Assembly (NCBI GenBank): GCA_963716725.1
Contig: CAVQUB010000009.1
Location: 32,001 to 96,000 of the forward strand
Direction of reading: 5' to 3'
Length of the DNA stretch: 64,000 nt
Source of the DNA: an uncultured delta proteobacterium
GTDB lineage: Bacteria; Myxococcota_A; Polyangia; Polyangiales; Polyangiaceae
The notes under the pieces were generated by a model, which did no database searches, was not told the DNA's origin, and saw only the letters and a list, made by a program, of their open reading frames with translations. The position numbers were made by a program, and so were the translations under genes. This document shows, one piece after another, positions 3,923 through 25,509 of this stretch; position 1 is the stretch's first letter; every line of letters begins with the position of its first letter.

Positions 3923-4834
3923 GTGCCGCTCAGGTCGAACTCCTTCAACTTCGAGCCCGTCCGAGACGTGATGCGCCCCCGGGGGGCGGTCTGCCCCCTC
4001 GCGTCGGAGGCGGGCGTGGTGCCCGGCGCGCCCGATCCTGATCGCGCGGTCTTCCTCCGGCTCAAGGATCGAATGCGCCTCTTCGAGACTCGGACAGGAG
4101 ATTTCGACGACGGCGAAATCTCCCGGACCAAGGCCCTGGGGCAGATCTACGTGGACCGCAGCCTGAAGCAATGGCCCGACGACTTTCCGGACGATCTCGC
4201 GGCCCTCACGCCGGCGACAGAGTGCGTGACTTGTTCGCGACGCGAAGATTGTCCCGGCGCGTACCGCGCGTCTTCCCAAGATGTCTTCACCGCTGACGAA
4301 GCTCGCACCCGCGAGATCCTGCGTGGGCTCGAGGGCGCCGTGCTCGACATCGGCGCGGGTGACGCTCCCTACTTGGGCGATCTGGCACCTCGCGTGGAGG
4401 CGGGTCTGGCCAGCTACCTGGCGATCGATCCGGACGCGGAGCGGCTCGCGCTGCTGCGCAGCCGACATCCCTGGGCAGAGATCTTCGCTGGTGACCTCGA
4501 GGCTCTGCCGGCAGGTCGCCGGTTTGCTCATGCGCTGCTGCTGCGCAGCCTGAACCACGTGGCTGATCCCGCGCACTCCCTCGCGGTGATCTGCGAGCGG
4601 CTCGACGCCGGCGGCACACTCTCGATCGTGGACGACGTCGCCTTCGGTCTGATCCGCAGCGTCGAACAAGTGGAGCGCGCCTCCGCCGTTGGCCCGCGCT
4701 TCGAGCACCACCGCAACGACTCCGCCGCGGAGGTGATCGGCGTCGCTGCTGGGCTGCCGCTCCGACTCGTCGAGCGACGCGACGTGGGACCAGGCAGCAG
4801 CAATCAGTGGCTCTTGCGCTTCGAACGGGCGTGA
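3923..4834 (+). CDS. Class I SAM-dependent methyltransferase with N-terminal Cys-motif domain
   Basis: VLDIGAG motif I, AIDPD, SLNHV; CVTCSRREDCPG before the methyltransferase domain. Confidence 0.8.
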   Translation: MPLRSNSFNFEPVRDVMRPRGAVCPLASEAGVVPGAPDPDRAVFLRLKDRMRLFETRTGDFDDGEISRTKALGQIYVDRSLKQWPDDFPDDLAALTPATECVTCSRREDCPGAYRASSQDVFTADEARTREILRGLEGAVLDIGAGDAPYLGDLAPRVEAGLASYLAIDPDAERLALLRSRHPWAEIFAGDLEALPAGRRFAHALLLRSLNHVADPAHSLAVICERLDAGGTLSIVDDVAFGLIRSVEQVERASAVGPRFEHHRNDSAAEVIGVAAGLPLRLVERRDVGPGSSNQWLLRFERA

Positions 4835-12612: not shown

Positions 12613-13812
12613 GTGCTTCGTGCTCTTTCAGGCTTCGTGCGGACAAGTGCGTGCGCGAGGGTTCTCGCCACTGCTCTCGCTCTTACGAGCATGAGCGCAC
12701 CGGTACGCCTGGCGCAGGCCACTCCTCAGAGCGACGCCGCAGCGCTGAAAAAGTTCGAGGGCGGTCGAAAGGCGTACGACGCCGGCAGCTTCGAAGAAGC
12801 GCTCCTGGCGTTCAAGGGCAGCCTCGAGCTTTTGCCCAGCCCCAACACGCGTCTCTACATCGCGCGCTGCTATCGCGCGTTGAGCAAGCCCGCGAGCGCA
12901 TACACGACGTTCCGGCTGGCTTCCAAGGAATCTCAGGACCGGCTCAACGCCACGGGTGAGAAGCGCTACACCGCAACTCGCGACGCGGCGACCGCAGAGG
13001 CTGCCGAGCTCGAAGCGAAGGTGCCGCGCGTGACATTGGCCCTGCCATCCGACGCCCCTGAAGACACCCAGGTGAAGCTCGACGGAGATGTCGTTCCGCG
13101 CGGGGGCTGGGGCGTCGCCACCGAGATCGATCCGGGTCCCCACGAAGTGACGGCGGTCGGCGCTCGCCGCAAGCCCTACGCGCAGAAGTTCATTCTTGCC
13201 GAGGGTGAGCAAAAGCGAATCGACGTGAACCTGGTGAAGCTTGCGACCGCATTCGTGAACATCAAGCTCGCGAGTCGTCCGGCCGGGCTGTCCGTCGAGT
13301 TGGCGGGAAAGCCCCTGGATCCAGCTCTACTGGGCAATGAGCAGGCGGTGGACGCGGGCGCATTCCAGCTGGCGGTGCGCGCGCCTGGTCACAAGGAGTT
13401 TCGCTGGAAGAAGAACCTCGCCGACGGTGAGCGCGCGACGGTCGACGTCAAGCTCGTCGCTCAAAAGTTCGTCGGGAAATCCAGAGGCACACCCGCTTGG
13501 ATGTTCTTCACAGTGGCTGGCGGGAGCGTCGCAGCCATCGCGGGCGGCACTTACTTTGCAGTTCGCGCCAAGTCCTTGTCGGACGACGAGCAAGACAAGA
13601 ATCTGCTCCTGCGCGATCCGGCAGAACGTGATCGGGTCGATTCGCTCTCGGGCACGGCGAACCTGCTCTTCATAGCGGGCGGCGCGCTTGCGGTGGGGGC
13701 TGGCGTCCTGGCGTTCACGACACAGTGGGGCGACTCGAACGAGAAGGCCGCGGCAGTCGCACCCTTTGTCGGGGTTGGTACCGCTGGAGTCGCCGCCCGG
13801 GGAAGGTTTTGA
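12613..13812 (+). CDS. TPR + PEGA-domain exported protein
   Basis: Signal peptide; TPR-like PSPNTRLYIARCY; two PEGA-like segments (DPGPHEVTA, RAPGHK); C-terminal ARGRF. Confidence 0.8.
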   Translation: MLRALSGFVRTSACARVLATALALTSMSAPVRLAQATPQSDAAALKKFEGGRKAYDAGSFEEALLAFKGSLELLPSPNTRLYIARCYRALSKPASAYTTFRLASKESQDRLNATGEKRYTATRDAATAEAAELEAKVPRVTLALPSDAPEDTQVKLDGDVVPRGGWGVATEIDPGPHEVTAVGARRKPYAQKFILAEGEQKRIDVNLVKLATAFVNIKLASRPAGLSVELAGKPLDPALLGNEQAVDAGAFQLAVRAPGHKEFRWKKNLADGERATVDVKLVAQKFVGKSRGTPAWMFFTVAGGSVAAIAGGTYFAVRAKSLSDDEQDKNLLLRDPAERDRVDSLSGTANLLFIAGGALAVGAGVLAFTTQWGDSNEKAAAVAPFVGVGTAGVAARGRF

Positions 13813-15290
13813 TGCGTTCCGCTTTCGCGCTCGGACTTCTCGCGCTCGCAGGCGCGTGCACCTTCGGCGGTCTCGCCGATTACGAAATCGGCGAGTGCAA
13901 TCCATCCGCCCCGAAGGCGGACGATCCCTGCGACGCCCTCAACGACGGCGATGACACCACTTGTTCGCCGTATCGGTGCAGTCCCGACACCCGACGCTGC
14001 GCGAAGCTGCCCCGCGACGACGACCGCGACGGGGTCGTCAGCGCCGCTTGCCAGGGTGGCGACTGCGACGACACCGACCCTCGCAAGGCGCCGGGCCACC
14101 CAGAGGAATGCGATCTGATCGACAACGACTGCAACGGTCTCGCGGACGATGGCGTCGCGGCAAAGTCGCCGACACTCGTGGCTTCTGCCGGCGAGGAGCT
14201 CGAAGATCCCCAGATCGTTGGCGAGTCATCCAACGACATGTTCGGGCTGTGGATTGGAAAGGCGGAAGCAGCCGGCAAGTGCATGTACACCGTGCCTTTG
14301 CCGGCTGGCGCGGCCGGAACGCTGTCTTGCGCTCTCCTCGCTGGTGAAACGAATCTCGAGCCGCGTCAACCGCATGCCCGTCCTCTGCCGGGAGGCGGCA
14401 CGGCGGCCGTGATGTTGAAGACGCTCCAATGCGCCACGGGCGAGCTCATCTATAGATTTGCGATCCCAGGGAAGGCCGCTGGGGCTTCGCTCGGGTGTCA
14501 GGCCAAGGGTGCCGCGTTGCCTGCAATGGCCGTTTTGTCCAACGACAGCCAGGCGATCACCGCCTACTACGAGGTCTCGTATCTCGCGCGGAAAGACGAT
14601 CCGGTCCAAGGCTGTCCAGTAGCGGGTCCGGCGCCGTTGATGGTTGCACTCATCGACGGCGCCAAGACGAACGCGGTGAGCATTCTACCGCCACAAGCAC
14701 TGGCGCCTGACGCCGTCAGCGTGCGACGACCCGCGCTGATCACGAGCGGCGGCCGAACCCTGCTCGGATCGCCATCTGGCGCAGATGTCGGGCTCTGGCT
14801 GCTCGAGCCGGGCAGCGGCGCGGTCACCATCGCGGCGGAGACCACCATCCCGGGTCTCGCGGGTGCTCGCGCAGTCAGTCTCGGCGCTCGTCCGAACGGA
14901 GGCGGTCTCGAGGTAGCCGTGGCTGCCGAGATCGGCTGTTCGCCGGAACGGATCGCGCTGGCGCTGGTGCCAGTGGACGCCGCCGGAAAGTTTGGTGCAG
15001 CCACACTGGTGGAAGTGGCCGCGCCTGGCAGCGGTCCTGCAACCGGGACCAGCGTCGCGTGGCAAGCCGAACTCGGGGAATGGATGGTCGCCTGGACGGT
15101 GACGGGGCCGACCGCGCGCGTACGGCGTGTTCGTGCGGCCGACCAGGTGCTCGGTGACACCTTCGACGTGTCCGGGTTCACCGAAGCGCGCGCTGTCGTG
15201 AACGGCGACCTGCTTCTACAGAAGGCGATCCCACAGGGCGGTACCACTTCGCGAGAGTTCTGGTTCGTGCCTGGGGCGTGTAGTCAATGA
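13812..15290 (+). CDS. Lipoprotein with putative metal-binding Cys/Asp motif
   Basis: LAGAC lipobox; DCDDTDPRKAPGHPEECDLIDNDCNGLADDG. Confidence 0.8.
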   Translation: MRSAFALGLLALAGACTFGGLADYEIGECNPSAPKADDPCDALNDGDDTTCSPYRCSPDTRRCAKLPRDDDRDGVVSAACQGGDCDDTDPRKAPGHPEECDLIDNDCNGLADDGVAAKSPTLVASAGEELEDPQIVGESSNDMFGLWIGKAEAAGKCMYTVPLPAGAAGTLSCALLAGETNLEPRQPHARPLPGGGTAAVMLKTLQCATGELIYRFAIPGKAAGASLGCQAKGAALPAMAVLSNDSQAITAYYEVSYLARKDDPVQGCPVAGPAPLMVALIDGAKTNAVSILPPQALAPDAVSVRRPALITSGGRTLLGSPSGADVGLWLLEPGSGAVTIAAETTIPGLAGARAVSLGARPNGGGLEVAVAAEIGCSPERIALALVPVDAAGKFGAATLVEVAAPGSGPATGTSVAWQAELGEWMVAWTVTGPTARVRRVRAADQVLGDTFDVSGFTEARAVVNGDLLLQKAIPQGGTTSREFWFVPGACSQ

Positions 15291-15301
15291 GGGAGTCAGC
15301 G

Positions 15302-16528
15302 ATGAAAACGGCGATCACTGTTGGTTCGGTACTGGCTGGTTGCATGATTGCAGCGGCGTGCGGCGGCGGCGGTGATTCCAGCGATGCAGCCAAGGACGGC
15401 GGAAAGAGCGGCGGGGCGGCTGGTGGTGGTGGCACCACGACAGGCGGAACGGGCGGCAAGGGCGGAACGGGCGGAACCGACGCGGGCGCGGGGAGCGGCG
15501 GTGTCGCGGCTTCCGGCGGTGCCGGAACCGGAGGCGCGACCGGTGAGTGCAGTACCAACAAGGACTGCGAGGCGCTCTTGCCCGCCACCGAGCCTGCTGG
15601 CTGCGCCGAAGGCAAATGCGACATCCTGCTGAACGCCTGCACCTTCAATGCCAAGGACAGCGACGGTGACGGACACAGCGCCCAGGTCTGCACGCCAATC
15701 GGCGCCGGATCGATCAAGAGCGGCGACGACTGTGACGACGGAGACCCGAGCACGTACCCCGGTGCACCCGACTTGTGCGACGGCAAGATCCACACCTGCG
15801 CGACCAGCGCGTGCTCCTGCACGAATGGCGAGACCCAGGCGTGCGGCAGTGCGACCACGTGCAATTCCTCGGCGGTCAAGACATGCACCAACGGCAGTCT
15901 CGGAGTCTGTGATCCGCCACCCAAGACGACGTGTGCGCCCAACTCCATCACGGCCTGCACCACGTGCAGCACGTTGAGTCAATTTTCGAGCGGCACTCAC
16001 ATCTGCAATTCGAACTGCGACTACGCGGGAGCCTACTGCACGCCCACCGGCGGCAGCTGGACCGCGAACTCCGTCGACTCGGTTTTTCAACACGAATGTG
16101 GCTCCAAGTACACGCAGACCGGCATGCCCGATGTCTGGATGGTGTTTCCCAGCTCGGGTTCCGCCTGCTGGATGCAGAAGGGTCCCAACTTCAAGCTGCC
16201 TCGTGGCCGCTACAAGTGGACGTTCAAGGTCACGATCAACTCCAGCAACGGTGGGCTTTCGGCCGACGTCGCGCGGAACGGAACCACTGTGGGCCCGCCG
16301 GATGGGCCGCAGCCGGACTTCACTTGCCCGTGGAATGGCCCCGGCTACTGCCCGCCAGGCGTGATCACCATCACCAAGTCCGAGGCCGACGTCACGCAGG
16401 TCTACTCGATCGACTTCGGCGTGCCGGACGATTGCGGCGCGAGCTACGAGCTTCGCGTGCGGGCCTACGGCCCGGGCGGATGGATGATGCTCCACTACTC
16501 CACCGTCTCCTGGGCCGGGACGTACTGA
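15302..16528 (+). CDS. Cys-rich lipoprotein, metal-binding motif, beta-rich C-terminal domain
   Basis: AAAC lipobox; Gly linker; DSDGDGH..GDDCDDGDPSTYPGAPDLCDG. Confidence 0.8.
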   Translation: MKTAITVGSVLAGCMIAAACGGGGDSSDAAKDGGKSGGAAGGGGTTTGGTGGKGGTGGTDAGAGSGGVAASGGAGTGGATGECSTNKDCEALLPATEPAGCAEGKCDILLNACTFNAKDSDGDGHSAQVCTPIGAGSIKSGDDCDDGDPSTYPGAPDLCDGKIHTCATSACSCTNGETQACGSATTCNSSAVKTCTNGSLGVCDPPPKTTCAPNSITACTTCSTLSQFSSGTHICNSNCDYAGAYCTPTGGSWTANSVDSVFQHECGSKYTQTGMPDVWMVFPSSGSACWMQKGPNFKLPRGRYKWTFKVTINSSNGGLSADVARNGTTVGPPDGPQPDFTCPWNGPGYCPPGVITITKSEADVTQVYSIDFGVPDDCGASYELRVRAYGPGGWMMLHYSTVSWAGTY

Positions 16529-16562
16529 GTACTGAGATCACCACGTACTGAGTGAGGACTGG

Positions 16563-18074
16563 ATGAACGGACTAAGGATCACCCTGGGGATGCTGTTGGC
16601 GGCGACGGGTTTCGCCGCGGCGTGCAGCACGAGCTCGGATGACGAGAGCAAGAGCAAGTCCAAGACGTGCACGCTGGCGGCAGACTGTGCCGCCGCCCCC
16701 GCGACCAGCCCGCCGGGATGTGCGGAAGCCGCGTGCGAATCCGGTGTCTGTGCGTTCAAGGCCAAGGATGCCGACGGCGACGGTCACTCGAGTTCGCAGT
16801 GCGCCGCGGTCGGTAGTGTGGACATCTCGGTCGGCGACGATTGTGACGACGCAGATCCGGCGATTCATCCTGGTGCGTGGGATGGTCCAGCCAACTCCAC
16901 GACGGGAGATCCCGACCAGTGCGATCTGAAGGACCAGGACTGTGACGGAACCAGCGATGACGAGGCAGTGGATGGAAAGTCCTGCTCGTGCGACACGGGG
17001 GCGAGTCAGCTCTGCGCGACCGACGAGCTGGGTCAGCCGATTCCCGGGCTGGACGGGACGAAGCACGAGGTCGGGATCTGCAAGCTCGGCACGAAGCAAT
17101 GCGCACCCGGCAAGCCCGTCAAGTGCGTGGGAGCGGTGGGTCCGAGCGCGAAGGACTGCACGTCACCGCTCGACAACGACTGCAACGAAAAGCCCGACAA
17201 CACCGAGCTGACGTTTTGCGCGTGCAACCTGGGCGAGACGAAGAGCTGTCCGACCGGGAATATCGGTGAGTGCGCAACGGGCACCAAGACCTGTCAGTCG
17301 TCGGGCGCGTCTGCGGTCTGGGGACCTTGCGTTTCGCCCAGCGCGGGTGCGCCGGATTGCTCACAATCGCTGGACAAAGACTGCGACGGCGTGCCCGACA
17401 ACGCGCAGGAAAGCTGCAAGTGTGATCAAGGCGGAACGAAGTTTGGCATCGGGCTCACTGCCCAATGCGACGCGCATCCGGGTCTCGACGGCACCGGAGC
17501 GTGCAAGGCAGGACAGCAAACCTGTGTCTTGAACGGCAGTTCAGCACAGTGGACAACTTGCGCCGGGTCCGTTGGGCCCGCAGCAGATATGTGCGATCCG
17601 ACGCAGGACCTGAACTGCGACGGAAAGGGCGGCAACGGCACGAGTTGCTTCGTGATGATCTATACGCTGATCCCACCGAATCAACAGTTCGGTCCCTGCG
17701 ACTTTCAGTACGTTCAAGACGCAATGTGGAGCCCAGTCGCCAACGAAGCGGGCTGGAAACAAATCGCGCAGATGAAGATGTACAAGACTCAGCAGCCGGC
17801 TACGGTTGCCGCCGTTCGCTGCAACAGCGGCACCAAGCACGGGAGTTTCTTTGCCAGCTGTCCGGTAGGGTGGGCGCTGGAACAAACCGTGGGATGGGTA
17901 AAGACGTCGCCTGGCCTCGGTTTCGAGCAACTCAAGTCCTTCCCGCTGCCGTCGGCGCCGTCCACGCATGTGGTGTTCCCGGACTACCAGGGCATTTACC
18001 CTTGGTGCGCCTCTGGCTGCGCGCAGAACGGCTGTGCCGTAACGGGTAAGTACCACTACTACCTTGCCAACTGA
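16563..18074 (+). CDS. Cys-rich lipoprotein (tandem paralog A)
   Basis: GAGGA RBS; AAAC lipobox; repeated G.CK.G...C and D.DCDG motifs. Confidence 0.85.
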   Translation: MNGLRITLGMLLAATGFAAACSTSSDDESKSKSKTCTLAADCAAAPATSPPGCAEAACESGVCAFKAKDADGDGHSSSQCAAVGSVDISVGDDCDDADPAIHPGAWDGPANSTTGDPDQCDLKDQDCDGTSDDEAVDGKSCSCDTGASQLCATDELGQPIPGLDGTKHEVGICKLGTKQCAPGKPVKCVGAVGPSAKDCTSPLDNDCNEKPDNTELTFCACNLGETKSCPTGNIGECATGTKTCQSSGASAVWGPCVSPSAGAPDCSQSLDKDCDGVPDNAQESCKCDQGGTKFGIGLTAQCDAHPGLDGTGACKAGQQTCVLNGSSAQWTTCAGSVGPAADMCDPTQDLNCDGKGGNGTSCFVMIYTLIPPNQQFGPCDFQYVQDAMWSPVANEAGWKQIAQMKMYKTQQPATVAAVRCNSGTKHGSFFASCPVGWALEQTVGWVKTSPGLGFEQLKSFPLPSAPSTHVVFPDYQGIYPWCASGCAQNGCAVTGKYHYYLAN

Positions 18075-18118
18075 GTACGTACTCCCAGCTTTCTGTGTCA
18101 GCAGCTACTGAGGACGCT

Positions 18119-19627
18119 ATGAACAGACTGAAAACCACTCTGGGAACGGTCTTGGTGGCGACGGGTTTTGGCGCAGCGTGCAACTCGGGCTCGGATGACG
18201 AGAGCAAGAGCAAGTCCAAGACGTGCACGCTGGCGGCAGACTGTGCCGCCGCCCCCGCGACCAGCCCGCCGGGATGCGCGGAAGCTGCGTGCGAATCCGG
18301 TGTCTGTGCCTTCAAGGCCAAGGATGCCGACGGCGACGGTCACTCGAGCTCGCAGTGCAGCGCGGTGGGTAGTGTGGACATCTCGGTCGGCGACGATTGT
18401 GACGACGCAGACCCGGCGATTCACCCGGGGGCGTGGGATGGTCCAGCCAACGCGGCGACTGGAGAGCCCGACCAGTGCGATCTGAAGGACCAGGACTGTG
18501 ACGGAACCAGCGATGACGAGGCAGTGGATGGAAAGTCTTGCTCGTGCGACACGGGAGCGAGTCAGCTCTGCGCGACCGACGAGCTGGGTCAGCCGATTCC
18601 CGGGCTGGACGGGACGAAGCACGAGATCGGGATCTGCAAGCTCGGCACGAAGCAATGCGCACCCGGCAAGCCCGTCAAGTGCGTGGGAGCGGTGGGTCCG
18701 AGCGCGAAGGACTGCACGTCACCGCTCGACAACGACTGCAACGAAAAGCCCGACAACACCGAGCTGACGTTTTGCGCGTGCAACCTGGGCGAGACGAAGA
18801 GCTGTCAGACCGGGAATATCGGCGAGTGCGCAACGGGCACCAAGACCTGTCAGTCGTCGGGCGCGTCTGCGGTCTGGGGACCTTGCGTTTCACCCAGCAC
18901 GGGTGCGCCGGATTGCTCACAATCGCTGGACAAAGATTGCGACGGCGTGCCCGACAACTTGCAGGAGAGCTGCAAGTGTGATCAAGGCGGAACGAAGTTC
19001 GCCATCGGTGTCACCGCACCGTGCCAGACGCATCCGGGTTTCGACGGCACCGGAGCCTGCAAGGCCGGGCAGCAAACCTGCGTTCTGAACGGAACTTCAG
19101 CGGAGTGGACCGCTTGCGGCGGATCCGTTGGGCCTCTGGCTCAAGATACGTGCGACCCGACGAAGGATCTGAACTGTGATGGAAAATCCGGGAATGGAGT
19201 CGGCTGCACGGTCGCGGTCTACACGTTGATCCCGGCGAGTCAGCAGTTCGACCTGTGCGATTTCGACCACACCTCGGACGTGAAGTGGAGCTTCTCGATC
19301 GAAGCCGGCTGGCAGCACGTCGCGCAGTTCCAGGTGTACAAGACGCAACAGCCGGGAACGATTGCTGCCGTGAAGTGCATCAACGGCAAGCATGGAAGCT
19401 TCTTCGGAAGCTGCCCCGCCGGCTGGACGTTGGAGCAGACGATGGGGTGGGTGAAGACCACGCCCGGCCTGGGTTTTACGCCCCTTCAATCCTTTCCGCT
19501 CCCCGGCTCGCCATCCACGCTCATCGTGCTCGAGGTGGGCGGGGGTGTGACCAGCAGCATTCTGTGTAGCCCGTCTAGCTGCAAGAAGTCCTGCTCCTTG
19601 CTCGGCTACCACGCCCCTCTGTTTTGA
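18119..19627 (+). CDS. Cys-rich lipoprotein (tandem paralog B)
   Basis: Near-identical to paralog A over about 0.8 kb (offset 1556), diverged C-terminus. Confidence 0.85.
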   Translation: MNRLKTTLGTVLVATGFGAACNSGSDDESKSKSKTCTLAADCAAAPATSPPGCAEAACESGVCAFKAKDADGDGHSSSQCSAVGSVDISVGDDCDDADPAIHPGAWDGPANAATGEPDQCDLKDQDCDGTSDDEAVDGKSCSCDTGASQLCATDELGQPIPGLDGTKHEIGICKLGTKQCAPGKPVKCVGAVGPSAKDCTSPLDNDCNEKPDNTELTFCACNLGETKSCQTGNIGECATGTKTCQSSGASAVWGPCVSPSTGAPDCSQSLDKDCDGVPDNLQESCKCDQGGTKFAIGVTAPCQTHPGFDGTGACKAGQQTCVLNGTSAEWTACGGSVGPLAQDTCDPTKDLNCDGKSGNGVGCTVAVYTLIPASQQFDLCDFDHTSDVKWSFSIEAGWQHVAQFQVYKTQQPGTIAAVKCINGKHGSFFGSCPAGWTLEQTMGWVKTTPGLGFTPLQSFPLPGSPSTLIVLEVGGGVTSSILCSPSSCKKSCSLLGYHAPLF

Positions 19628-19628
19628 C

Positions 19629-21107
19629 ATGCTCGAGCCTGCGACCCTGCCCTTGATTGGTGGCCGCTATCGCGTCCTGCGCGAGCTCGGTCGCGGTGGG
19701 ATGGGCGTGGTCTACGTGGTAGAGCACGTGAACACCGGCGATCACCTGGCGCTGAAGCTGTTGCTGGCCCACGCCAACGCGTCGCCCGAAACTGTCGTGC
19801 GCTTCAAGCGCGAAGCGCGCGCACCGGCGAAGATCAAGAGCGAGCACGTCGTTCGCGTCACCGATGCCGACGTGGCGCCGGAGCTGGACCATGCGCCGTT
19901 TCTCGTCATGGAGCTCCTGGACGGACAGGATCTGGAGAAGCTCGTCGAGACCTGCGGCATGCTCCCGCCGGATCAGATAGTCGACATGCTGGCGCAAGTG
20001 GCGCGAGCGCTCGACAAGGCGCACGCTGCCGGCATCGTGCATCGGGATCTCAAGCCGGAGAACCTGTTCTTGCACAAGCGCGAGGATGGCTCGCAGATCG
20101 TGAAGATCCTCGACTTCGGGATCAGCAAGGTGATGGGTGGCGAGGGTCTCGGTTCGACCGACCAGTCTGGCGGCGCCACCAAGACCGGTTCTGTCTTCGG
20201 GACGCCGCTGTACATGGCGCCAGAGCAAGCGAAGGGACAACACGCGCAAATCGGCGCGGGCACGGACATCTGGGCGATCGGGCTGATTGTTTATCGTCTG
20301 GTCACGGGCCAGATCTACTGGCGCGCGAATACCATCGCGGAGCTCCTGGTGGCGATCATCGCCGAGCCGATGCCGGCGCCCTCGACGCTGAGCCCGCTCG
20401 CGCTCACTCCGGCCTTCGATGGCTGGTTCGCTCGCTCCTGCGATCGCGATCCAACGCTCCGTTTCCGGACGGTTGGCGACCAGGTGCGCGCGCTGGCCGA
20501 GGCGCTCGGCGTTCCGGTTCCGGCTGGGCTGGCCTCGCTTCCCATCGTCGCGGCTCAGCCAGGATTCGCGGTGGCGGCGACCGCGCCGGAGGGTGTTCGC
20601 ACTTCGTCGCCCCAGCTCGGTTACGCGCCGATGATCCAGGGCCAGTCCGCGCCCGGTGAATCCGTCAACCGTTCCAATGCTTCGGTGTACAGCACGGTGC
20701 CAGAAGCGACGTCGGCTCCCAAGCGCTCCAAGCTGCCGGTCGTGGGCGCGGGTGCACTCGTGCTCTCGCTCGCCATCTCCGGAACGGTGTTTGCGGTCAT
20801 GCGCGCGAGCGGAGGCGCAACACCGGAAGCGAGCGCCTCCGTCTCGGCCGACAGCCTCGTTGGCGTCGCTCCCACGCTCGTGGAGCCACCAACGCCGCCG
20901 GCCGCGCCAGCGACGCCTACTCCAAGCACCGAGCCAGTCGTGCCAACGGAGCCGCCAGCGGCGAACCACAAACGTCCCACCACGGGCTCGAAGACGACGA
21001 GTGGGAAGTCGGATGCCGGGACCGCCAGTGCCGCGCCTGTGCGCGCACCTCCAGCGACAGCCAAACCCAGCGGAAAGCCCGGAGACTACAGTCCCGAAGC
21101 TCCCTAG
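19629..21107 (+). CDS. Hanks-type Ser/Thr protein kinase with TM and Pro/Thr-rich tail
   Basis: GRGGMG, ALK, HRDLKPEN, DFG, YMAPE. Confidence 0.95.
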   Translation: MLEPATLPLIGGRYRVLRELGRGGMGVVYVVEHVNTGDHLALKLLLAHANASPETVVRFKREARAPAKIKSEHVVRVTDADVAPELDHAPFLVMELLDGQDLEKLVETCGMLPPDQIVDMLAQVARALDKAHAAGIVHRDLKPENLFLHKREDGSQIVKILDFGISKVMGGEGLGSTDQSGGATKTGSVFGTPLYMAPEQAKGQHAQIGAGTDIWAIGLIVYRLVTGQIYWRANTIAELLVAIIAEPMPAPSTLSPLALTPAFDGWFARSCDRDPTLRFRTVGDQVRALAEALGVPVPAGLASLPIVAAQPGFAVAATAPEGVRTSSPQLGYAPMIQGQSAPGESVNRSNASVYSTVPEATSAPKRSKLPVVGAGALVLSLAISGTVFAVMRASGGATPEASASVSADSLVGVAPTLVEPPTPPAAPATPTPSTEPVVPTEPPAANHKRPTTGSKTTSGKSDAGTASAAPVRAPPATAKPSGKPGDYSPEAP

Positions 21108-21302
21108 CCTCGCACCAGGGTCGCGACGCGCTTTCTGCGCATCGCCCTTCGGGCCCGGCTTCGGTTCACGACCGCGAGTCTAGCAAGACACCGGGCTTCA
21201 ACACGCCACTCGAATCGATCTCGCGCTTGCCGGCGCGGAGGGCATGCGCATGCGGCGCATGGGTGGAATGAAGGGGGCAGGCAACGCGCTCGTCCATGCG
21301 TT

Positions 21303-21380
21303 GAATGACCACTGCGGCAAACGCCAGACGGAGGCCGAAGGCCGACCTTGGCGGCTGTCCGCAGCAAGGCCTTGTCATAC
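21303..21380 (-). mobile_element. attC-like site with non-canonical core, short deletion at the right end
   Basis: GTATGAC-AAGGC-CTTGCTGC-GGAC...CGCCA..GGCCTTCGGCC..TGGCG..GCCGCAG-TG-GTCATTC; the upstream ORF stop lies inside GTATGAC. Confidence 0.6.
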
Positions 21381-21893
21381 AGGCTTCCGCACACTGGCGA
21401 CTCGGTCAAGGACGGCTCGGGCAGTCGTCGACTCTGCCACCGCGCGGCTGATCATTGGGTGATCGATGAGTTTCAGGCGAACGATCTCCTCGGCTGCGTT
21501 CGCAGCGAGTTCGGCATCCCGAACAAGTGCCTCTGCGAGGATTGCCACCGTGCCCTCATCGGAGGAAGCGATGTGGGTGAGCGCCACAAGTGCCTCCCAC
21601 GCGGCCGCCCCCGACCCCTGGCGAAACGCTGAGACGATCAGGGGAACCAATGGGTGGGCATCGTGCCCGATTAGCCGAGCCGTGATTAGGGCACACCGGA
21701 ATGGTTCGCTCATGACTCCGTACGGATTCACTCCGAAGGCGTTCCGCGCCGACCCGTCGAGAATGGCACGAATGGCAGGGATGGCATCAGGCCCGCGAGC
21801 GGCCGCGAGGTGCGTCGCTGTTGCGCGACGGCTCGGCTCTGCGAAAGCTTCGAGGAGGTGGTCGAGTAGATCCGATTGGTGCGGAAGCTCCAT
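21375..21893 (-). CDS. Helical (HEAT-like) hypothetical protein, probable gene cassette
   Basis: LAAARGPDAIPAI, IGHDAHPLVPLI; bounded by attC-like sites; no clear RBS. Confidence 0.65.
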   Translation of the reverse strand: MELPHQSDLLDHLLEAFAEPSRRATATHLAAARGPDAIPAIRAILDGSARNAFGVNPYGVMSEPFRCALITARLIGHDAHPLVPLIVSAFRQGSGAAAWEALVALTHIASSDEGTVAILAEALVRDAELAANAAEEIVRLKLIDHPMISRAVAESTTARAVLDRVASVRKPV

Positions 21894-21902
21894 GGTGGCG
21901 CC

Positions 21903-22069
21903 GTATGACGATTGAGGCTTTCAGCAGCGAACGCCGAGACCAAGAGATACCAGAGCGCGCGGCGTTGCACACGCGGGCGAGTGCCGCGTCAGAGTGGTCG
22001 CCCACGGGCGTGGAACGAACTTCCACGCGCGGGAGACCGGCGATCGTCGGGTGCAACGACCAGTTGTGC
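21903..22069 (-). mobile_element. Long attC-like site (~167 bp, possibly chimeric)
   Basis: GCACAAC-TGGTC-GTTGCACC-CGA-CGATCGCCG ... CGGCGTTCG-CT-GCTGAAA-GCCTCAATC-GTCATAC. Confidence 0.6.
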
Positions 22070-22106
22070 GGCTGCCGGGAGGACGGAATCGAGTTATGCT
22101 TTGTGC

Positions 22107-22291
22107 ATGGCGCAGTCACCCCCCGACGGGTTGTTGCGGCGCGCGCTGGCGCTCCCTCCGGACAAGCGGCTCGCCCCGGTGTCGGTGGTCTCCGGCTCTC
22201 GCGCATGGCCGGTGAAGACCGCGGGGAAGACAAGCTCGAGGACTGGGCGACCGTGAAGGCCAGACTGCGCGCCGAGTTGCGCGGAAGGTGA
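22107..22291 (+). pseudogene. Addiction-module antitoxin, internally deleted/frameshifted
   Basis: LLRRALALPPDKRLA in one frame and EDWATVKARLRAEL in another; GTGA overlap with the toxin. Confidence 0.65.
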
Positions 22292-22544
22292 TAACCCGCC
22301 TTTCCGACGGCGCGCAGGAGGACCTGCGGCGCGCGATCCTGCAGTACGAAGAGGCTCGCACGGGGCTTGGCGGTGAGTTCCTCGACGAGCGGACCGGCCA
22401 TTGGAATTCCCGGTTTGGCAGGACGACCGACCGCACCGAAAGGCCGTGATGCTCCACAGGTTCCCCTTCGTCATCTACTTCCGTCTCAGCGAACGCGAGG
22501 TCCACGTCTTGGCTGTCGCCCACGGGAAACGCGAACCCGGTTAG
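22288..22544 (+). pseudogene. RelE/ParE toxin remnant
   Basis: AQEDLRRAILQYEEARTGLGGEFLDE, then frame change, then LHRFPFVIYFR..VHVLAVAHGKREPG. Confidence 0.8.
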
Positions 22545-22732
22545 GCGGAGCAGAGCGCGCTGAATCGGTTACACGACAAAGGCAAACTGTGCGGGTCCTG
22601 CTGAATCCGCTCGAAGATGACGTCCAGCTCCGCGAACAAGCGCTGCGCGACGGTCGGGTCTCGTTGGTAGTACCAAGATAGCGCTTCGTCGATGTCGAGC
22701 AGCGCGCTCGGGCGAACAATGAGCGTCGTCAC
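22541..22732 (-). pseudogene. RelE/ParE toxin, 3'-truncated
   Basis: IVRPSALLDIDEALSWY...LFAELDVIFERIQQDP; only 63 aa. Confidence 0.75.
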
Positions 22733-22734
22733 CG

Positions 22735-22907
22735 TCAGCGACCGGCCGGATACTTCTGCTGAAGTTCGGCGCGCAACTCACCCCAAGCGCGTCCGGCAGT
22801 CGGGTCAGCACGATAGGCTTCGAGTTGTTCGCGGAGAAGCTCGCGATGCCAGTCTGGAATGGGGACGTCCGCTCGCTCGACGATTTGGTCCCACAAAGAC
22901 TCGACGT
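22735..22907 (-). pseudogene. Addiction-module antitoxin, 5'-truncated
   Basis: Manual translation: VESLWDQIVERADVPIPDWHRELLREQLEAYRADPTAGRAWGELRAEL. Confidence 0.75.
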
Positions 22908-22927
22908 GCTTCAACAGCTTGTTGGGC
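22908..22927 (-). mobile_element. Left half of an attC-like site
   Basis: GCCCAAC-AAGCT-GTTGAAGC 16 bp after the stop of the 23513-22944 ORF, then fused to the antitoxin remnant. Confidence 0.55.
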
Positions 22928-22943
22928 GGCGCTGTCAGAAACG

Positions 22944-23513
22944 TCAGTCAGGGAGGAGGAGCGTGCCGTTCCTAGCGGCGGCCTGGGCTCCCGGAAGAAC
23001 TGACCGTGACCCGAGTCGCTGGACTGAGAGTTTGTTGCGAATGTAACGATTGATCTTGCCGGAAATGCTCGAGACAACCCGGAAGTCCCAGTCGTCAACA
23101 GATGGCAGGTCAACGTACGTGTCGGACCAGGTCATGGCGCGCTGCCGACTGTTGTGATTTGTAAAGGACTCGCGAAGACGGCCAATCTTGTCGTTCGTGA
23201 AGTCGAGTTCGATTTGGATTAGCCCCCACCCTTGAACGTGTTCGCGGGTGGACTTTCCGGGGATCGCGTTGGGCAAGAGCTTGATGTGCTCAATGGTGTA
23301 CCTTCCGCGCATGGTCGGCGCGTAGAGCATGAACCCCAGGTGGTAGGGCGCCGTATCGACCGCCTGGCCGATCTCCTCGACCGAGGTAAACCGACGCAAC
23401 GGACGGTCTGGTACGGAGTAGCTTTCCAGGACCTCGCACTCGGTGTTTGAAAGGACGAACTCGAAGATCGGTCTCGCGTCGGAGCGAACCGCGAAAAAAC
23501 CGTGATGCGGCAT
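22944..23513 (-). CDS. Hypothetical protein, probable gene cassette
   Basis: GGAGG RBS; visibly lower GC than flanks; followed by an attC-like half site. Confidence 0.75.
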   Translation of the reverse strand: MPHHGFFAVRSDARPIFEFVLSNTECEVLESYSVPDRPLRRFTSVEEIGQAVDTAPYHLGFMLYAPTMRGRYTIEHIKLLPNAIPGKSTREHVQGWGLIQIELDFTNDKIGRLRESFTNHNSRQRAMTWSDTYVDLPSVDDWDFRVVSSISGKINRYIRNKLSVQRLGSRSVLPGAQAAARNGTLLLPD

Positions 23514-23571
23514 GTCAGTACCTCCGCCCGGCTCCCATTCTACCTGCAGCAGCTCGCCGACTGCGCTGGAT

Positions 23572-23692
23572 CATTCCCCCCGCCCGAGCGGCGCGAGGGC
23601 TTGGGGGGAATCGCCCGCCGCGAGGGGCGCCGACGGTGAGTCGTCGAGCGTCGTGGCGAAGCGAGGCCCCGAGCGCCGGGCGATGGGGGGCA
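23572..23692. repeat. ~120-bp structured intergenic repeat, copy 1
   Basis: CATTCCCCCCGCCCGAGC...GGGCTTGGGGGGAATCGCCCG...CGGGCGATGGGGGGCA. Confidence 0.9.
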
Positions 23693-23704
23693 ACTCGGAC
23701 TGAC

Positions 23705-24571
23705 TCAGCGGCGGCGGCGCGTCGCGGGGCCGGTGGCCCAGCGCCAGCGCACGCCGAGGTGAGCGAAGTCCGCGCCGGCGAGGCCGATGCTGTCGGGGCT
23801 GTGGATCACCGGCAAGAACGAGAGTTCGACGTCGGCATGTTCCCCGATGGCCACGCTGCCGAGCACGCCGGCGCGGATCACGTAGCCAGCACGCCCGGGG
23901 TTCTCGAGGATCTCTTCGGCCACGCCGAGCCGGATCGCGTCGTTTCGGCCGAAGCGCCAGGCGTAGCCGACTCGCGCGCGCCACAGCCACGGAGGCGCGA
24001 TGATCACGTTCCGGTACTCGTCGTAGAGGTGGTGACCCGGCTCGAGCTGCGTGGCGTAGTACACGCCGAGCAGCCAGAAGGGACCGCCGCCGGGGACCGC
24101 GACCGCGCCCGAGAGCTCGCTCTCGAGCGTGACCGGCTCGGCCTCGGGCCCGTCCGGCAGGTCGAGATCGGCGCTTTCGTGCTGTTCCTTGGGCGGCATG
24201 AGCGTGCGCCCGAAGGTCTCGAACTTGCGCACTCCCGCCCGGAGCTCCAAGAACGGAACTGTTGCGCGCACGCCGCCGTAGAAGCCCGCGCCGGACATCG
24301 TCACCAGCGGTTCCAGGTCCAGGCTCATGGCACGATAGAAGGGACGCCCGAAGCCCACCTGGAACGCGGGGCGCACGTAGGGCAAGCCGATGGCGAGGGA
24401 CGCGCTGACGAAGGGACGCGGCTGACCGCGCGACCAGTACGGCGCATCGACGGCTCGCGCGGTCATGCTTGCGTCGGGCCAGGCTTCGCTCGGCAGCGCC
24501 TCCGCCCGGGCGGTCGTGCCGCTGGTGAGGCTCGCAGCCAGAGCGGCGACGCTCGCGAGGGTGCGTGTCAA
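23705..24571 (-). CDS. Exported protein, probable outer-membrane beta-barrel
   Basis: Signal peptide ending ARA; alternating amphipathic strands; HLGVRWRW near the C-terminus. Confidence 0.7.
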   Translation of the reverse strand: MTRTLASVAALAASLTSGTTARAEALPSEAWPDASMTARAVDAPYWSRGQPRPFVSASLAIGLPYVRPAFQVGFGRPFYRAMSLDLEPLVTMSGAGFYGGVRATVPFLELRAGVRKFETFGRTLMPPKEQHESADLDLPDGPEAEPVTLESELSGAVAVPGGGPFWLLGVYYATQLEPGHHLYDEYRNVIIAPPWLWRARVGYAWRFGRNDAIRLGVAEEILENPGRAGYVIRAGVLGSVAIGEHADVELSFLPVIHSPDSIGLAGADFAHLGVRWRWATGPATRRRR

Positions 24572-25509
24572 AACGCACCTCCTACGGCGATGCCCGTGGG
24601 ATGCGGCACGAGGTGCAGACTCGGCTTCGGCGCGAAGCGCTCACCTTGGGGCTTCCGATAGTGGAGCAACCAAGGCACCCCGAGGCCGGAGAGCGTGCCC
24701 CAGGCCGCGCCCATCATCACGTCGGAGGCGTAGTGTACGTCGCCCATGACTCGCAGCGCGGCGGTCGCGCCCGCTGCGGCGTACCCTGCCGCGCACGACG
24801 CGACCTCCGGCGCACCACCGCCATAGAGCGGCAGGTGCGCGTGGTGCATGCACGACACGCTCGCCGCAGCGAACGCGCCGGTGGTGTGTCCGCTGAAGAA
24901 GCTGCGGTAGCGATCGCCGCCGGTGCACTCGCGAAGCTCCGAGTCGAGACCCTGGCCACACTCCGCGCCGTAGGGTCGCTCGCGGCTCGCGAGGGAGGTG
25001 ACGGTGGCGAGCACCGCGAAAGTGACCGCGAGGGTCTCGGCGTTGATGAGCAGGATCTGCTCGGTGACCTCGGGGCTCTGGTGGTACCAATAGCTGGTGA
25101 TCAGACCGTCGCCGAGCGTCGGGCCGGCGAAGCTGAGCGCAAGCAACACGTCGCTCGCGTCGCGGGCGCGGCGGCGCTGCCGGTCGGTGCCCAGTCGCGT
25201 CGAACGGCGCAGGTCGTCGTCGAACAAGACGCCGCCTCTCCAGTGGTCGCCGCGGGAGCCCGCCGCCACCGCCGCGACCGCGCTCAGCGCGAGGCCACCG
25301 GTGAGGTAGAGTTCCCAGGTCTGCACGGGGTGGTACCGCCACCGCAAGCGCGCGGGCCGGTCGGGTGCCGGTGGGAAGAGCACGACGGGAGGCGGCGCTG
25401 CGCCCGACTCGGAGCTCCAATCCGGCGCCGGCGGTTGCGCAGCCCCGGCGCCGGTCGCCACCAGCGAGATCGCCAGCGCTGCTGCGAGAACGGTGGGGGC
25501 ACGGCGCAC
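24568..25509 (-). CDS. PAP2-family phosphatase
   Basis: RERP, SFFSGH, LRVMGDVHYASDV. Confidence 0.9.
   Translation of the reverse strand: MRRAPTVLAAALAISLVATGAGAAQPPAPDWSSESGAAPPPVVLFPPAPDRPARLRWRYHPVQTWELYLTGGLALSAVAAVAAGSRGDHWRGGVLFDDDLRRSTRLGTDRQRRRARDASDVLLALSFAGPTLGDGLITSYWYHQSPEVTEQILLINAETLAVTFAVLATVTSLASRERPYGAECGQGLDSELRECTGGDRYRSFFSGHTTGAFAAASVSCMHHAHLPLYGGGAPEVASCAAGYAAAGATAALRVMGDVHYASDVMMGAAWGTLSGLGVPWLLHYRKPQGERFAPKPSLHLVPHPTGIAVGGAF

Follow-up and report, generated by a model that had tools for sequence, protein, structure and literature searches.

A gene cassette with complementary GTC/GAC core changes in a decayed attC array of a Polyangiaceae genome

The stretch of DNA that we have analysed, referred to below as the window (64,000 nucleotides, positions 32001-96000 of contig C9 of host genome G000), carries a 2.2-kb cluster of integron gene cassettes that has a kinase gene on one side and an unrelated gene on the other, Table 1. 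The cluster is made up, in order, of an attI-like head, a 189-aa ORF, a piece of an addiction module similar to one in the main integron array on host contig C8, the remnant of a toxin-antitoxin cassette similar to one on host contig C7, a chimeric attC site and the cassette that is the focus of this work. Just upstream of the array (23572-23692) is a repeated C-run/G-run hairpin element of ∼120-145 nt, with copies that are 87-88% identical at C9:64246, C9:68954, C2:64596 and C8:368489 of the same genome. Elsewhere in the window, 13725-19627 on the + strand is occupied by four genes in tandem (413-521 aa), all of them with a weak Cu-binding_MopE motif, and then by a gene for a Ser/Thr kinase.

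Table 1. Features of the cassette cluster, with positions counted from the first letter of the window.
Feature	Position	Strand	Details
Probable array head: attI-like 11-mer, then G↓CCGGGC in attI register	23526-23545	-	GCC core, uncompensated with respect to R'' GCCCAAC
First cassette ORF, 189 aa	22944-23513	-	No Pfam match
Stub of the attC of the first cassette (R'' GCCCAAC + L'')	22908-22927	-	Cut off by deletion
Internal fragment of addiction-module cassette (antitoxin + truncated ParE)	22545-22907	-	98% over 363 nt to C8:391013-391376; PF09720 E=1.9e-9, PF05016 E=0.003
Remnant of reverse-oriented toxin-antitoxin cassette	22070-22544	+	BLAST pieces 84-87% to C7:150055-150240; weak ParE match, E=0.045
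Upstream attC, 167 nt, long family of the host	21903-22069	-	R'' GCACAAC canonical; chimeric, L'' of CACCCG type and L' of CTGCTG type
5' cassette boundary GTCATAC (G↓TCATAC), R' box with T3>C	21903-21909	-	From sequence; canonical form in host genome GTTATAC; C8 siblings GTATAAC/GTTATAC
Cassette ORF P0001, 172 aa, HEAT-repeat-like helical protein	21375-21893	-	Pfam and relatives
R'' box GTATGAC, A>G, stop TAA to TGA	21374-21380	-	From sequence
Attached attC of the cassette	21300-21380	-	Left arm intact except L'' CTT for GTT; L' cut after GCCGCAG; 6-9 nt missing; from alignment to intact C7:151713 sibling and folds

Both 7-mers pointed out in the first-pass annotation, GTCATAC ahead of the ORF and GTATGAC at its end, were confirmed on the minus strand. 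The ATG (21893) lies nine bases 3' of GTCATAC, the remnant of the R' box of the cassette, and the R'' box GTATGAC, which holds the TGA stop, is the exact complement of that remnant at 7/7 positions, the two ends being 530 bp apart in the chromosome. The GTT/AAC triplet of the R boxes is absent from this cassette, which reads GTC/GAC instead. The 7.9-Mb genome has 67 occurrences of GTCATAC, with ∼2e-4 expected within 40 nt of a given start, and the copy at this locus is preceded by the end of an L' box and spacer like that of host attC sites that continue with GTT. Because of both its frequency and this context the placement of GTCATAC is not a matter of chance. The focal ORF and its bounding 7-mers are a genuine integron gene cassette, and the earlier description of a cassette with complementary changes at core position 3 on both arms is borne out.

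Against Pfam HEAT_2 (PF13646) the cassette protein scores 17.5 bits (E=0.005) with a gathering cut-off of 27.7, while its homolog P0009 is above the cut-off at 31.1 bits; 72 relatives of P0001 are found at E≤1e-3 and its Atlas neighbours are HEAT_2. A word-index search for the cassette gene gave one relative, and three of 300 order-level genomes hold a match, G298 and two weaker ones. The G298 homolog (locus L010, G298:C68) follows an intact attC and starts at a canonical GTTAGGC cassette boundary, in what is a single case. A site near this HEAT-like cassette reads GGCTCAC..GCTAGCC, and the cassette is cut at its 3' end by a sequence that is presumably transposase-like. No second copy of the cassette gene was found by tblastn in the genome or metagenome contig collections, and no copy of the focal cassette with a GTT/AAC core was found by tblastn of genome and metagenome contigs or in the 300 order-level genomes, so that we infer the ancestral state of its core from sibling sites. 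Contigs from four runs, which cannot show absence, contained no joint in which the focal cassette had been excised or moved, and small-share matches in eight runs were uninformative with regard to habitat.

All three attC sites of the array are damaged. The site attached to the focal cassette has a left arm and an inner stem that clearly belong to the same attC family as the sibling on C7 and has lost the final part of L' along with the greater part of the spacer. The motif GTCATTC (21309-21303) is found 2 nt past GCCGCAG as opposed to 11 nt in the intact sibling, and the downstream attC is therefore truncated. GTCATTC had been read as the next boundary, and the motif is indeed present, but its distance from the L box is 9 nt too short for a clean one. 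In an alternative parse the boundary is ATTCAAC (21306-21300), and the TGGTC ahead of it is what remains of a spacer, comparable to the GCCTGGTC spacer of locus L020. For the upstream site a fold that started one base short (22068, not 22069) gave zero R-box pairing, a value that is indicative only, as compared with pair probabilities of 0.7-0.8 for an intact C8 sibling. This site (22069-21903) and a second one at G000:C34:145251 are chimeric, each with a CACCCG-type left arm and a CTGCTG-type right arm that have apparently been joined via a shared GGCGTTCG stretch, and a non-GTT core is found in three of the four sites with the right end of the chimeric type. Judging from the sequence, the focal cassette is probably immobile now, through loss of part of L' and the spacer and not through its GTC core.

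Every recognisable R' core in the array has changed (GCC, GTC, and ATT or GTC), and two R'' boxes still read AAC. The attI-like 11-mer at the array head occurs three times in the genome, at the two attI sites of the host and at the head itself, with the crossover register also in common. A shorter 8-mer of this head is present 26 times, for which reason a promoter box has to be considered as a rival reading, and the head would probably be either an attI remnant or a promoter-like box that was used as an insertion site. A search with TIGR02249 (integron integrase) gave no match on contig C9, and Rfam returned nothing relevant over 20500-25000 (one chance match). No empty insertion site was found in the same-genus genomes G093, G138 and G244, where the flanking genes are not adjacent.

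The host genome encodes one full IntI, on C8, and one that is 5'-truncated, on C7, each with cassettes located 3' of, and co-oriented with, intI, in a layout that we take to be that of the group known as inverted-integrase chromosomal integrons. The window array draws its attC family, its cassette pieces and its attI-like motif from these host integrons, and differs from them in having no intI and only a possible attI remnant. The array fits a decayed CALIN derived from the inverted-type integron of the host. What it has in common with a CALIN (Cury et al. 2016, PMC4889954) is that cassettes accompany at least two attC sites, that the window contains no intI and that an IntI is encoded elsewhere in the genome; it differs in that none of its three attC sites is intact. 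The origins listed by Cury et al. are rearrangement, loss of intI and insertion at secondary sites. Orphan cassettes away from the integron platform can also arise by insertion at attG sites (Loot et al., bioRxiv 10.1101/2022.09.11.507474). The attG consensus, however, is GWT, in contrast to the GCC and GTC cores of the focal array, and had attG been the route the cores would have changed after insertion.

To establish how common such cores are, 39 regions of the host and its family were surveyed, 28 of which gave 215 paired sites. Of these sites 190 were called AAC/GTT and four more proved to be GTT on inspection, while GAC, the commonest R'' variant, was seen in five and GTC in three, the focal boundary being among the latter. 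None of the 157 adjacent family pairs had GTC followed by GAC, the focal downstream site being too broken to be called, and 136 were GTT/AAC with 0-1 mismatch between the variable positions of R'' and R'. Scans with a GAC-core pattern gave at least 120 matches in genomes and at least 120 in metagenomes, spread over many phyla; 79 of the matches listed for genomes and 98 distinct ones among those listed for metagenomes passed the pairing filters. A sample of 401 genomes contained nine GAC sites versus one AGC site, the position-2 control, or seven versus one (p=0.07) when two preselected genomes were left out, and the single AGC site in 401 genomes is too few to test. A core-agnostic structural grammar applied to the whole genome gave 3186 mostly chance matches and was useful for seeding only, and of the 77 matches to a left-arm profile those outside arrays were mostly noise. 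The best candidate for an array made up entirely of GTC cores is L042 in G383, an all-GAC/GTC pair of sites on a contig other than those that carry intI and the main arrays; of the matched sites of that genome 38 of 41 are AAC..GTT, and its IntI motifs are normal. The first-pass annotation had called for a count of these variants in the host and related genomes; other GTC/GAC sites do exist, so that a situation with no other GTC-core sites does not apply. We found no paper on natural GTC/GAC attC cores in the literature searched, most subscription journals and supplements being outside its scope.

Several further sites came to light in the course of these searches. A lone attC left arm in the host (G000:C5:376758, + strand) has R'' GTTCGAC, a second GAC-like host core, and is cut off by a hairpin repeat element. 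Locus L171 (G244:C2, ∼4147-4310, - strand) is a same-genus copy of the reverse toxin-antitoxin cassette, with an attC that reads GCATGAC..GTCATAC in one hairpin and an upstream boundary GTTATTC. Eleven IMG/VR viral contigs (L299-L309) match the GAC-core attC pattern, and the same-genus integron at G138:C1 ∼669000-730000 has ∼80 long (165-nt) attC sites behind intI, with more arrays on other contigs.

In the first-pass annotation it was suggested that the compensated core may point to an integrase of relaxed or altered specificity, and the reading that such an enzyme made GTC/GAC sites, or uses them, is one that we consider very improbable. The core itself, and nothing else, speaks for it, along with an assembly that is 84% complete, from which a further integrase could be missing. 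The host IntI, however, is canonical. It aligns over its full length with VchIntIA (PDB 2A3V, E=3.5e-81), keeps T22, Y26, R135, K160, H267, R270, H271, H293 and Y302 (positions counted by eye on the VchIntIA alignment) and is 49-66% identical to IntIs of the family, in all of which the GKG lysine is kept. Both host attI junctions are G↓TT and 21 of 26 paired host sites are AAC/GTT, one C34 site of the GCC type being included among the five that are non-canonical, and the IntIs of three other genomes with GAC sites have the same motifs as that of the host. The lysine in question, K171 in IntI1 and K160 in VchIntIA, makes the only base-specific contact at the core position 3 pair (Frumerie et al. 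2010, PMC2811028). In that study the same compensated change as at our locus, T3>C and A>G on the two R-box arms, was engineered in attCaadA7 and VCR and assayed with IntI1, whereas the focal site is natural, belongs to another attC family and is broken around the core. With wild-type attI1 as partner the compensated sites recombined at relative frequencies of 1 (attCaadA7) and 0.044 (VCR) (PMC2811028, Table 4), as compared with 0.0056, a 150-fold drop, when both partners were GTC, and an unpaired core lowered the frequency from 2.2e-3 to 6e-6; VCR-GTC showed no detectable in vitro cleavage in an attC x attC complex (PMC2811028). Recombination of a compensated GTC attC is thus within the reach of wild-type IntI1 and calls for no special enzyme, and the suggestion of altered specificity is not sustained.

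The question of whether matched arms reflect compensation or drift can be addressed by comparing two boundaries of each GAC site. The partner of the R'' box of a GAC cassette is its own upstream (5') boundary, with the non-partner downstream boundary as a control. Among the matches listed the partner boundary could be found in 22 of 52 loci with enough flank in genomes and in 22 of 63 in metagenomes, giving 28 GTT and 4 GTC calls, with 12 that were other or doubtful dropped; sample sizes are thus limited, and any duplicates across the two collections were retained. Considering only cases that are GTT or GTC, again among the matches listed, the partner is GTC in 4 of 32 (95% interval 4-29%) and the non-partner downstream boundary in 25 of 154 (Fisher p=0.79), and neither does the partner rate differ significantly from the 3/46 obtained for AAC neighbours in the same loci (p=0.44). 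It is, among these same matches, raised relative to healthy arrays of the family (∼3/200 GTC, p=0.008), and the argument for drift therefore rests on the control for local decay. Downstream of GAC sites the ratio of GTC to GCT is 11:3 among the matches listed (p=0.057), an excess that could reflect either compensation within the hairpin, in which case the control is inflated, or a bias towards position 3 of the kind observed on the other arm. GTC is enriched near GAC whether or not the boundary is the partner, as local decay predicts, and double changes that do not match are found as well (L178 GCT>GAC, G138 GTC>ACC and L237 GCT>GAC). Compensated pairs are not seen more often than would be expected from local decay. 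The first-pass argument, that the same change on both arms marks a real variant as opposed to decay, thus finds no support, since the match rate equals that of independent drift and non-matching double changes occur.

We consider it likely that an ordinary cassette entered with a GTT/AAC core and that both of its ends subsequently drifted, separately and by the same favoured transition, in a decaying array without an integrase. The anatomy of the cassette, the three damaged attC sites, the pieces common to the C8 and C7 arrays and the canonical IntI of the host are all observed directly. Insertion would have occurred with a normal GTTATAC/GTATAAC core, and each end would later have acquired, as TAAC>TGAC on one strand, the change seen most often at that position. 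For the gene this change is silent at the 3' end, TAA>TGA, with the stop kept. Such cassettes may persist because the intact IntI that is encoded elsewhere in the genome would be unable to remove damaged sites by excision. A truly compensated core, moved by ordinary IntI as a circular cassette and followed only later by the deletions, is a doubtful alternative. The R' change T>C would have produced a G-T wobble on the recombining bottom strand, converted to G-C by the R'' change A>G, or else one arm would have been copied from the other. This alternative draws on the exact 7/7 complement, on the efficient use of attCaadA7-GTC by IntI1 described above, on further natural partner-matched cases among the matches listed (L042, L099, L180, L221 and L278) and on the fact that R'' and R' are as a rule complementary at the variable positions, as in 136 of the 157 adjacent pairs. 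However, partner matches are not in excess over controls, VCR-GTC is the site that was not cleaved in vitro, and the matched cases that were examined lie in short or degenerate clusters.

Two other readings concern the motifs themselves. That the downstream site has GTCATTC as its genuine R' box, corrected so as to pair with GTATGAC in a chromosomal hairpin and giving two linked GTC boundaries in the array, strikes us as extremely improbable. ATGAC does pair with GTCAT in the predicted fold (pair probability ∼0.7), and GAC..GTC in the same hairpin is what is found in the 25 of 154 sites among the matches listed, and also in same-genus G244. This reading requires, however, a 9-nt deletion that destroys the geometry of the L box, as against a 6-nt deletion plus G>A for the ATTCAAC parse, the ATT variant being common (5/98 among the matches listed), and the excess of GTC over AAC neighbours is not significant (p=0.14). 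An artefact of sequencing or assembly is hardly conceivable. The genome assembly is incomplete, but GTCATAC is matched without a single difference by short-read contigs from two runs, X1 (study P1) and X5 (study P2), and the same is true of GTATGAC and the downstream site for contigs of X5; either run may be the source sample. The agreement of contigs from two studies refutes the artefact.

As it stands the focal cassette is one more decayed orphan cassette, of little consequence, and it is already known that a compensated GTC core works, since one was engineered and assayed in 2010 (PMC2811028). What the present work adds is a first count, by which GAC-core attC sites are widespread and mostly uncompensated, and this bears on attC detection and on PCR primers that assume AAC/GTT. 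It appears unlikely to us that GTC/GAC is a natural, still-functional minor class of attC core, generated via a wobble intermediate or by arm-to-arm copying and moved by ordinary integrases. If it were, the class would represent in nature what the Frumerie mutant is in the laboratory, and would mark a process by which the arms of attC are kept complementary when cassettes are made. Arm-to-arm compensation, if real, would thus offer a handle on how attC arms stay complementary, with a bearing on the creation of cassettes.
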